A stretch of 63,802 nucleotides of DNA, counting the filler, from Chrysochromulina tobinii (Eukaryota), in the NCBI GenBank assembly GCA_001275005.1. It is 12 parts of 12 records of this genome, joined end to end, with 100 filler letters (N's around TTAATTAATTAA, not from the genome) between each part and the next. Parts side by side here need not be neighbours in the genome. Positions count along the whole stretch, not along the records: positions 39,317 to 54,014 come from JWZX01000312.1; 11 more parts are not named here. One strand, given 5' to 3'. The position numbers and the translations under genes were made by a program. Numbering within the stretch: the first letter of the stretch is position 1; each line of letters opens with the position of its first letter. Below are positions 48,801 through 51,282 of this stretch, piece by piece. Below the pieces are notes generated by a model. The model had not been told where the DNA came from. It was given only the letters and a program-made list of their open reading frames with translations, and made no database searches.

Positions 48801-51282
48801 TCTGATGACCTCTGATGACTTCACAGATGATTGTTTGGGTGGAGCTCACGTACGACCAGAAGAAGATGTACCGCGCCGTGCTGGAGAGCCGTCGCGACGT
48901 GCTGCTGCACGGGGTGGAGAACGCGCCGCTCCCGTCGCTGATCAATCTCCAACTCGAGCTGCGCAAGTGTTGTAACCACCCGTGAGTCTCGTCAATTGCC
49001 TCTTGATGGCCTCTGATCAATTTCCAACTCGAGCTGCGCAAGTGTTGTAACCACCCGTGAGTCTCGTCAATTGCCTCTTGATTGCCTCTGATCAATCCGT
49101 ACCTTCTCCGGGGCTCCTCGCATGCAAGTCTTGCTCACCACGGCGCGCTCCACCCCCCCCCATTCGTGTTCCCCACAGGTACCTCATACGTGGCGTCGAG
49201 CAATCGATGACGAACCACAAGACAGCGGCGGAGGTGCGCGAGGCGATGCCCCACCCCCCTCCCCGGCCGCATGCAAGTGCTCACCACGGCGCCGCGTCGC
49301 CCCGCTCTCCCCACAGGTACGCGAGGCGATGCCCCACCCTCCTCCCCGCCGCATGCAAGTGCTCACCACGGCGCCGCGTCGCCCCGCTCTCCCCACAGGT
49401 ACGCGAGGCGATGCTCGCGGCCAGCGGCAAGCTCGTGCTGCTCGATAAGCTGCTACCGAAGCTACGATCAGAGGGACGACGCGTGCTCATCTTCTCGCAG
49501 GTGTGCTGATTGAGATTGATTGAGATGGATTGAGATTGATTGACATGGATTGAGATTGATCGGAGGGACGACGCGTGCTCATCTTCTCGCAGTTTACGAT
49601 GATGCTCGCGCTGCTGGGCGAGTTTCTCGACGCCCGTGGCTTCTCGTACGTGCAGCTCGACGGCTCGGTGACCGGCGACGCTCGGCAGGCGGCCATCGAC
49701 CGCTTTTGCAAGCCCGGCTCGTCCATCTTCGCCTTCCTCCTCTCGACGCGCGCGGGCGGCGTCGGCATTAACCTCATCGCGGCCGACACCTGCATCATCT
49801 TCGATAGCGACTGGAACCCGCAGAACGACGTGCAGGCCATGGCTCGTTCACACCGTATTGGTCAGCAGAAGATCGTCAAAGTGTTCCGTCTCGTCACGCG
49901 CAACACGTACGGCGCTCCCAAATTTGGAAGATTCGTCAAGGTCGCTCGGCATGCAAGTGCTCACCACGGCGCCCCCTCCTCCCCCTAATTAGGTACGAGG
50001 CGGAGCTCGTCAAGGCCGCGAACAAGAAGCTCGGCCTCGAACGCGCCTTCAACGCCGACCAGGGCGCTGGAGGCGCTGTCGCGGGCGGCACCGACGACCC
50101 AACGGCCGATGAGCCAACGGCCGACGGGACGCTCATCGACGGTGGCGGAGCGGCCAACGGTGTGAAATCATACAACGGCCCACCGCGCGACCGGGCGGCA
50201 GTTGAGCGCATGCTACGCTGCGGTGCGCAAGACATCATGCTCGACGACGACAGCGCGTTTCGTCGATTCTCTGAGGCGGACATAGATTCCCTGTTGCAGA
50301 GTTCCGTCAGTTCCGTCACGACGAGCGCTGCGACGAGCGCGTCGGCCGGCGGCGGCGGCTCGAGCTTCGCCAAGGTCGCCTTCATCGCCGACGGCGCGCA
50401 GATCGACATGGGCGACCCGGAGTTCTGGGCCAAGGTGCTGCCCGCCGACCTGGTCGAGCCCGGCATGGAGGTAGAGGTAGATGTAGAGGTAGATGCGCAT
50501 CCCCGCCGAGCGCCCACCGCCCTGCCCCGCATGCAACTGCTCACCACGGCGCCCGTCCCTCGTTCCTGTCGTTCCCCACAGGTCGAGGGCATCCCCGCCG
50601 AACGCCCTCGACGGGCTGCTGGGGTGGCCGCCCAGAAGATGCGCTGGTACGTTTATGGCGGCTGATTGCGACTGATGGCGACTGATTGCGACTGATTGTG
50701 TGGCCGCTCAGAAGATGCGCTGGTGCGCTGATTGCGACTGATTGCGACTGATTGCGACTGGTTGCGACTGATTGCGACTGATTGGGTGGCCGCCCAGAAG
50801 ATGCGCTGGTACGCCGCGGTGGAGGCGGGCCTCCCTCCGCATGCAAGTGCTCACCACGGCGCCCGCCCCTCGTTCCCCACAGGTACGCCGCGGTGGAGGC
50901 GGGCCTGCCTCCGGAAAAGGCCAAAGGCGCTGCAGTGGGCGCTGCGGGGGCGTCTGCCAAGCGAAAGCGCCCACCGCAGCGCGACGCCGACGGCGACGAG
51001 GAGGGTGAGATGGATGAGGCGGCGCTCGTCGAGGATTGCGGGGAGTGCACCAACTGCCTCGACAAGCGCAAGTTCGGAGGGCCGGGCCTCAAGAAGCAGA
51101 AATGCAAGGTGCCTGTGCCTGCGGGGACGCGCGCCGCCGTGAGCACCGCCGCCTCCCCCTCCGCCCCCTCCTCCGCCGTCCCCCTCGAAGCTAAGGCATG
51201 GGCAGGAGCAGCGGAAGGGGGGCGCCCGCAGCGGGGGGGGGGCAAGCGCCGTAGCTACGCGGAGTTGGACGAGTGGGAGTAA
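42898..51282 (+). CDS. CHD-family (CHD6-9-like) SNF2 chromatin remodeler, 17 exons, ~2100 aa: Tudor-like, two chromodomains, ATPase, helicase-C, partial CXXC finger
   Basis: Manual splice with introns 43633-43725, 44416-44497, 44575-44739, 44974-45205, 45387-45487, 45535-45604, 45876-45955, 48149-48348, 48443-48528, 48741-48826, 48982-49178, 49234-49398, 49501-49592, 49907-49992, 50471-50581, 50647-50882. This restores [84 protein letters not shown] and TRNTYE. Confidence 0.9.
45876..45955 (+). other. class A intron with exact exon duplication
   Basis: Starts with 33 nt identical to the start of the next exon, then CTGATTACC repeats and CCTCATCAG. Confidence 0.9.
48443..48528 (+). other. class B GC-AG intron with exon duplication
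   Basis: GCACGCCGCTCCAAAA(A/T)AGCACCACGGAG copy of the next exon, GCATGCAAGTGCTCACCATGGCG core, CCCCACAG; removal restores LTGTPLQN. Confidence 0.85.
49234..49398 (+). other. two class B introns in tandem with no exon between them
   Basis: 83-nt and 82-nt near-identical units joined at CAG|GT (49316/49317). Confidence 0.85.
49501..49592 (+). other. mirror-class intron ending in a copy of the upstream exon
   Basis: GTGTGC + (GATTGAGATT)n + 35-nt copy of the upstream exon end supplying the CAG; removal restores [11 protein letters not shown]. Confidence 0.85.

Follow-up and report, generated by a model that had tools for sequence, protein, structure and literature searches.

Introns of Chrysochromulina tobinii that probably arose by duplication of an exon end and insertion of part of another intron

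The window analysed here is a 63,802-nucleotide stretch of the Chrysochromulina tobinii assembly GCA_001275005.1, and it contains a gene for an SNF2/CHD helicase (Pfam SNF2-rel_dom and Helicase_C). The closest named homologues of its exon 2, by identity, are those of Prymnesium parvum (78%) and Haptolina ericina (76%), which points to a likely prymnesiophyte haptophyte as host. Upstream of exon 2 lies an intron, 49501-49592, whose 3' part repeats the end of the preceding exon, and several other introns and inserts surround it (Table 1). We refer to introns in which a filler brings the donor and a copy of the upstream exon end brings the acceptor as class C; in classes A and B the copy begins with the donor and the filler ends at the acceptor. 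Two double structures in the gene, one found by scanning and one read by eye, combine both types at a single junction. The first, 50622-50882, is removed as a single intron (50647-50882), and the class C part of the second, 48938-49178, is missing from a related protein, P0004. The insert at 44250-44321 may be translated rather than spliced; its filler is an inverted copy of the start of a nearby intron (~44415-44465, 150 nt downstream). The intron at 40309-40460 is possibly an older class C intron, judging by its decayed likeness to the exon end.

Table 1. Features of the helicase gene and its surroundings, in window coordinates.
Feature	Position	Strand	Basis
GC..AG intron of neighbouring gene; decamer filler, decayed likeness to upstream exon end	40309..40460	-	RNA joints, sequence
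57-nt insertion with 15-nt duplication; in frame, no stop	44250..44321	+	sequence
Class B-type intron; decamer filler, acceptor in filler	48149..48348	+	sequence, RNA joints
Second double structure; upstream-exon duplication with new donor ahead of class A intron	48938..49178	+	sequence, RNA joints
Class A intron, tandemly doubled; donor from downstream exon copy, acceptor from filler	49234..49398	+	sequence, RNA joints
Upstream exon of SNF2/CHD helicase gene; ends ...RVLIFSQ	49399..49500	+	RNA joints, translation
Exonic copy of 35-nt duplicated segment	49466..49500	+	sequence comparison
Class C intron; 92 nt, phase 0, GT..AG	49501..49592	+	RNA/DNA contigs; absent in five related proteins
Filler: donor head and five 10-nt units; 5' splice site, candidate branch points	49501..49557	+	sequence
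Intronic copy of upstream exon end, 1 mismatch; pyrimidine run and CAG acceptor, candidate branch point	49558..49592	+	sequence, cut test
Downstream exon; Helicase_C domain	49593..49907	+	Pfam PF00271, E 1.3e-18
Double structure; class C build (decamer filler, upstream-exon duplication) on top of a class A intron, both sharing one junction	50622..50882	+	sequence, RNA contigs

Other peculiarities of the window concern splicing and repeats. Between two young introns, a small exon near 50583-50646 is skipped in the X16 RNA contig and included in X14 (alternative splicing within 50487-50882). On the minus strand, the class B acceptor motif, in reverse complement, opens the intron at 40072-40196 and gives it short terminal inverted repeats; this intron also holds an internal duplication. 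Within its SNF2 domain, the helicase has a very long insertion of low complexity (45640-48050), in which in-frame tandem duplications abound; the corresponding insertion of the P. parvum homologue is shorter. Long coding tandem repeats occupy 13330-14585 (147-nt units, which we take to be FG-GAP-like) and 36700-39000 (75-81-nt units, presumably beta-helix-like). Paired N runs around a short spacer occur at twelve places (e.g., 39217-39316), where contigs are joined by linkers, and gene neighbourhood across these is not real.

The exon-end copy that closes intron 49501-49592 matches the exon at 34 of its 35 nucleotides and includes an identical run of 30 nt. The filler ahead of it consists of a 7-nt head and five 10-nt units, three of them perfect GATTGAGATT and two variants, and its period runs on into the first 3 nt of the copy. 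In a control in which the flanks of 149 filler arrays were swapped, the best flanking-repeat score had a median of 6 and a 95th percentile of 10, against 30-32 for this intron; a few swapped pairs scored high (maximum 118) and are probably leftover duplicates. Among the 31 equivalent 92-nt cuts, only 49500/49593 has GT..AG ends, and it places a CAG at the end of the copy. Exon 2 begins with TTT, and the donor comes from the filler. The preliminary description had claimed exactly this: a one-mismatch exon copy supplying the acceptor and a filler supplying the donor. No GT..AG or GC..AG cut exists within the 35-nt duplication alone, so the intron does not qualify as a pure tandem duplication. 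Terminal inverted repeats are absent from it; the only inverted pair, of 9 nt, lies inside the duplicated exon segments. Among 74 sequences, its decamer unit occurs at its own locus only, with no template donor found for it, and a variant is present in one other DNA contig.

Use of the 49500/49593 junction in transcripts had been set beforehand as the decisive check. Assembled RNA contigs from five of six runs (X11, X12, X13, X14, X15), probably a single campaign on a single culture, carry this joint and skip the neighbouring introns too, with the cut inside the 30-nt identical stretch being one that reads cannot position. The X16 RNA contig extends to 49563, with 100 nt lying elsewhere, and the joint is not among the matches listed for it, while the X1 and X9 DNA contigs span the intron unspliced. 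Removal of the intron restores the helicase reading frame; without splicing, stops appear in all three frames. In its removal from RNA at GT..AG and this restoration of frame, 49501-49592 behaves as a U2-type spliceosomal intron.

We compared 31 closely related proteins at this junction: 5 are continuous, 15 start with V/M-LIFSQ, and 11 are uninformative. The five continuous proteins (P0004, P0126, P0127, P0131, P0132) reveal an empty site, although they read through or into unspliced neighbouring introns, and all have a different downstream intron in common. The V/M-LIFSQ start is expected if an exon copy precedes exon 2. These data suggest that 49501-49592 is likely a recent gain relative to a lineage known from its proteins, the direction of the change being read from the near-perfect repeats rather than from an outgroup. 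A second case is locus L055, where an 84-nt class C insert is flanked by a perfect 30-nt duplication; the corresponding wild contigs L026, L049 and L054 lack the insert and have an open frame there. Both sites thus vary in presence between close relatives, as introners do in the broad sense. A complete-intron allele without the exon copy was found neither among the 20 informative proteins at 49501-49592 nor in three contigs at the L055 site. At L038, foreign filler and a 45-nt duplication sit at an existing donor which is plain in L031, and this difference implies that one-step events on an unspliced template occur. In L073, intron 49501-49592 is present twice in tandem with the intronic variant base in both copies, so the doubling came after the birth of the intron. 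A systematic strain-pair scan recovered the L055 site only, and the L038/L031 pair, which it missed, was seen separately. Near 49630, in exon 2, four proteins (P0008, P0133, P0134, P0143) have a class A intron at a GTACG site that is plain in the window; this intron occurs in both lineages, possibly through parallel gain or recombination.

A metagenome scan with the class C filler pattern yielded 72 loci; the 73 loci used here, together with the window, make up a biased sample of ~0.36 Mb of non-redundant sequence. Scans of viral contigs returned 0, 1 and 0 loci, and scans of genome contigs returned 0 and 4 unrelated bacterial matches. A noisy first automatic classification produced 214 segments; filters on strand, filler content and mismatches removed 69 rows, and a further 44, which were reiterated, were kept separate from 101 single duplication-plus-filler events (the L055 site, missed by this set, was added by hand later). 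Against a null of random targets combined with real fillers, an exact splice-out at the 3' end of the duplication (class C) is predicted in 27 of the 101 events (null mean 7.2, maximum 18), which bears out the expectation that the class extends beyond the helicase site, and at the 5' end (classes A and B) in 30 (null mean 5.9, maximum 15). Cuts inside the duplication are no commoner than the null (9 of 101, versus a mean of 10.8 and a maximum of 20). For 43 events no exact splice solution exists, and many of them look by eye like filler-in-filler repeats or nested inserts. Duplications measure 11-45 nt in class C (median 22) and 17-40 nt in classes A and B; a short target duplication of fixed length, as in MITE-type introners, is not seen in this set.

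Donors lie outside the locus-fetching pattern in 19 of the 25 GT-donor class C events, and the second exon does not begin with GT in 18 of 25. Class C acceptors look selected: 17 of 25 are CAG, compared with 0.30 of random AGs, and they are pyrimidine-rich (p 0.003). A CTCAY branch-like motif, a post hoc lead, is more frequent among class C copies (7 of 25) than among A/B copies (1 of 29; p 0.014). At L017 7159 (minus strand) and L039 1212, exon and intron copies have diverged, with the acceptor kept or improved in the intronic copy only. A 9-mer common to three class C targets was considered as a sign of homology-guided return and set aside (p ~0.05, post hoc).

The fillers appear to be related to one another and to whole introns. 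A family of ~54 nt exists in three states: full length with its own acceptor, cut at its 3' side and followed by an upstream exon copy (class C), or cut at its 5' side after a downstream exon copy (class A). Near-identical copies occur at 8 aligned unlinked sites, all 8 beginning exactly at the donor, and the class C copies mostly end soon after a branch-point-like motif. Decamer fillers, too, occur with both end types. As judged from these likenesses, all three classes draw their fillers from the same intron families, each filler being a 3' or a 5' piece. The preliminary description had set class C in opposite polarity to A and B and had argued for a general duplicate-and-fill process; the two polarities and the generality stand, with the refinement that the classes do not have separate fillers. 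The best filler match falls within the same region in 12 of 45 events, compared with 3.5 expected (permutation p 0.0012), and outside it in the other 33. Filler motifs share the strand of their neighbour in 120 of 121 pairs. Contigs of filler motifs reach hundreds of times single-copy depth, which is not a copy number. The same duplication-plus-filler build is seen in pentamer-repeat and 9-11-mer-repeat families, and a telomere-like filler at L009:105-230 is flanked by a 27-nt duplication. Several recurring intron-end motifs, in the window and the loci, are perfect palindromes of 10-14 bp, suggestive of fold-back synthesis.

We propose, with a probability of roughly 0.55, that error-prone repair or replication duplicated 35 nt of the helicase exon and pasted the 5' part of another intron between the copies, and that this gain was recent; dozens of similar inserts likely arose in the same manner, through DNA repair that copied a short exon segment and added a fragment of another intron. 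A short match such as (C)AG-G would be the point at which synthesis departs from the gene; synthesis would then copy a stretch of an intron already present, frequently one close by, with slippage within its 10-nt units, and return 11-45 nt upstream at another short match. The product has the observed order of exon end, filler and copy of the exon end. An insert whose filler opens with a donor and whose exon copy closes with AG can be spliced out exactly, as happens at 49501-49592 and presumably at the other class C sites; where the copy starts with GT or GC and the filler ends at an acceptor, classes A and B would result. Other products would be purged from exons by selection unless in frame. 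The long direct repeats would then allow whole introns to double, as seen in a strain pair.

Microhomology at the loose junction averages 1.27 versus 0.57 nt in 11 class C events (p 0.013) and 1.44 versus 0.59 nt in 9 class B events (p 0.008), both small samples, and 48 of 81 duplications without intron filler are in frame. This microhomology, the inverted copy, the in-frame bias, the acceptor bias and the L038/L031 difference are all signs of DNA-level template switching followed by selection; in particular, an inverted local copy surviving in frame (44250-44321) is not expected from a sense RNA template of the same gene. The empty sites, the enrichment of both polarities and the local filler matches also speak for this explanation. 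The proposed repair break is itself deduced from sequence scars. The near-complete strand agreement of neighbours, the exact donor starts of the eight-copy family, the best filler matches outside the region (33 of 45) and the 43 events without an exact splice solution count against this explanation. In twelve double structures, moreover, events of the 5' and the 3' type share a junction, in some cases with only 2-3 nt in common with a template end, and random switching does not easily reach such precision.

The strand agreement and the donor starts favour splicing- or RNA-coupled capture, in which excised intron RNA, perhaps reverse-spliced into a transcript or R-loop, would act as template. 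A true splice site would then set one end of the insert, microhomology would join the other, and a long duplication would remain. Reverse splicing into R-loops has been proposed (PMC10996645, section 17). Class C copies that end soon after the branch-point-like motif, repeated events at one junction, and local donors, which fit co-transcriptional proximity, are also on its side. We nevertheless regard this explanation as doubtful: the inverted local copy and the in-frame non-intron fillers show an active DNA-level process, several donors formed at the junction from a target G and a filler T, plain reverse splicing predicts no duplication, and selection alone could enforce sense orientation in exons. 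As a tentative and slightly broader proposal, splicing may guide intron birth, with excised or reverse-spliced intron RNA or spliced message serving as repair template at transcribed genes; fragments of present introns would thereby enter new exon sites from either end and leave a long target duplication. If true, this would be a transposase-free, self-seeding intron factory, still active in wild populations.

Less probable still is that a pre-existing complete intron was partly overwritten from spliced mRNA, cDNA or an intronless allele, with its 3' end replaced by upstream exon (class C) or its 5' end by downstream exon (classes A and B). Such aborted conversion would explain the exact junctions and both polarities together, and it suits the exon-exon junction sequence held inside the double structures, the filler halves at L042 and L065 that overlap as if one element had been split, and the full-length members of the ~54-nt family. 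It is opposed by the occurrence of only empty or class C states among the informative proteins and at the L055 site, by the L038/L031 duplication, which extends into unspliced intron, and by the doubles read by eye, in each of which one half could splice by itself, as would be needed if the gains were sequential.

Non-LTR and SINE-type elements typically vary in the length of their duplications and in the extent of their truncation. Both kinds of variation are seen here, and the discrete ~54-nt family recurs at unlinked loci, as a SINE-like introner moved by a non-LTR retrotransposon through target-primed reverse transcription, with long target-site duplications, might do. We consider this very improbable: truncation within one family is 3' in class C yet 5' in classes A and B, class C copies have a fixed 5' end, an A-tail is lacking, templates are biased towards local ones, and the same build recurs in several unrelated filler families, including the telomere-like one. 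An old intron with a chance exon match, or a join artefact, can practically be dismissed even though the CAG at this position is a typical proto-splice site and a 30-nt identical stretch can branch a k=31 assembly graph, given the extent of the exon match, the DNA contigs that keep the intron while RNA contigs skip it along with its neighbours, the empty sites that accompany a different downstream intron in five proteins, and the stops in the unspliced frames.

In the literature searched, with subscription papers largely outside it, we came across no account of duplications of long and variable length that enclose truncated pieces of introns. The available part of the supplement of PMC9860276 lists marine Chrysochromulina MAGs with introners and names C. 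tobinii among the screened genomes only; three filler motifs looked for in that part were not found. The main text of a 2025 introner survey gave no match for Chrysochromulina or haptophytes, and the accessible text of the C. tobin genome paper mentions introns once. Alternative end joining is known to leave templated insertions and partly tandem duplications (review PMC7407515), and our events resemble these in combining a duplication with direct or inverted copies of nearby DNA and microhomology; recurring spliced introns made from intron templates are not described in the available part of that review. Intron gain by tandem duplication of an AGGT-containing exon (PMC3265369, PMC4974935) likewise takes splice sites from duplicated exon, as the events cut inside the duplication do here, but in the accounts available it involves no foreign filler, whereas the donor of 49501-49592 is not in the exon. 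Neointrons of Daphnia pulex, ascribed in the text consulted to staggered double-strand breaks, have 4-12 bp repeats and AT-rich fillers mostly of unknown source (PMC4202315). Like ours, they are polymorphic inserts within a direct repeat of the adjacent exon end; here, however, repeat length is two to four times theirs, and the filler can be recognised as an intron piece that brings a ready splice site.

There is also a close resemblance to introners, which take one of their splice sites from the duplicated target (Gozashti 2022, bioRxiv 10.1101/2022.06.06.494994), as do dinoflagellate ILEs (bioRxiv 10.1101/2020.10.14.339549). One Chrysochromulina sp. family carries its 5' site, co-opts a 3' site, lacks TIRs and makes 4-bp duplications, according to Fig. 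2C of the former. Polarity alone is therefore not new, since borrowing from short fixed duplications has already been described. As in introners, the insert brings one splice site, the duplicated exon gives the other, and intron families are repeated; the introner duplications in the parts of these sources that treat them are 3-8 nt, fixed per family, and surround whole elements, whereas ours are long, differ in length and adjoin elements whose duplication-facing side is cut at differing points, with both polarities arising from one family. We have not found in print the combination of duplications of long and variable length, intron pieces cut at differing points, both polarities, numerous loci and strain polymorphism. 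Such introns could escape searches designed for whole repeated introns with short duplications, and gene callers will misplace them because the exon end is present twice. The origin of new spliceosomal introns is a long-standing question, and most mass gains have been credited to fixed-end transposons. In the present case, existing introns appear to give rise to new ones piece by piece, with either polarity and at numerous loci. Relatives still show empty sites, and RNA evidence comes from a cultured organism, which makes this route of intron birth directly testable.
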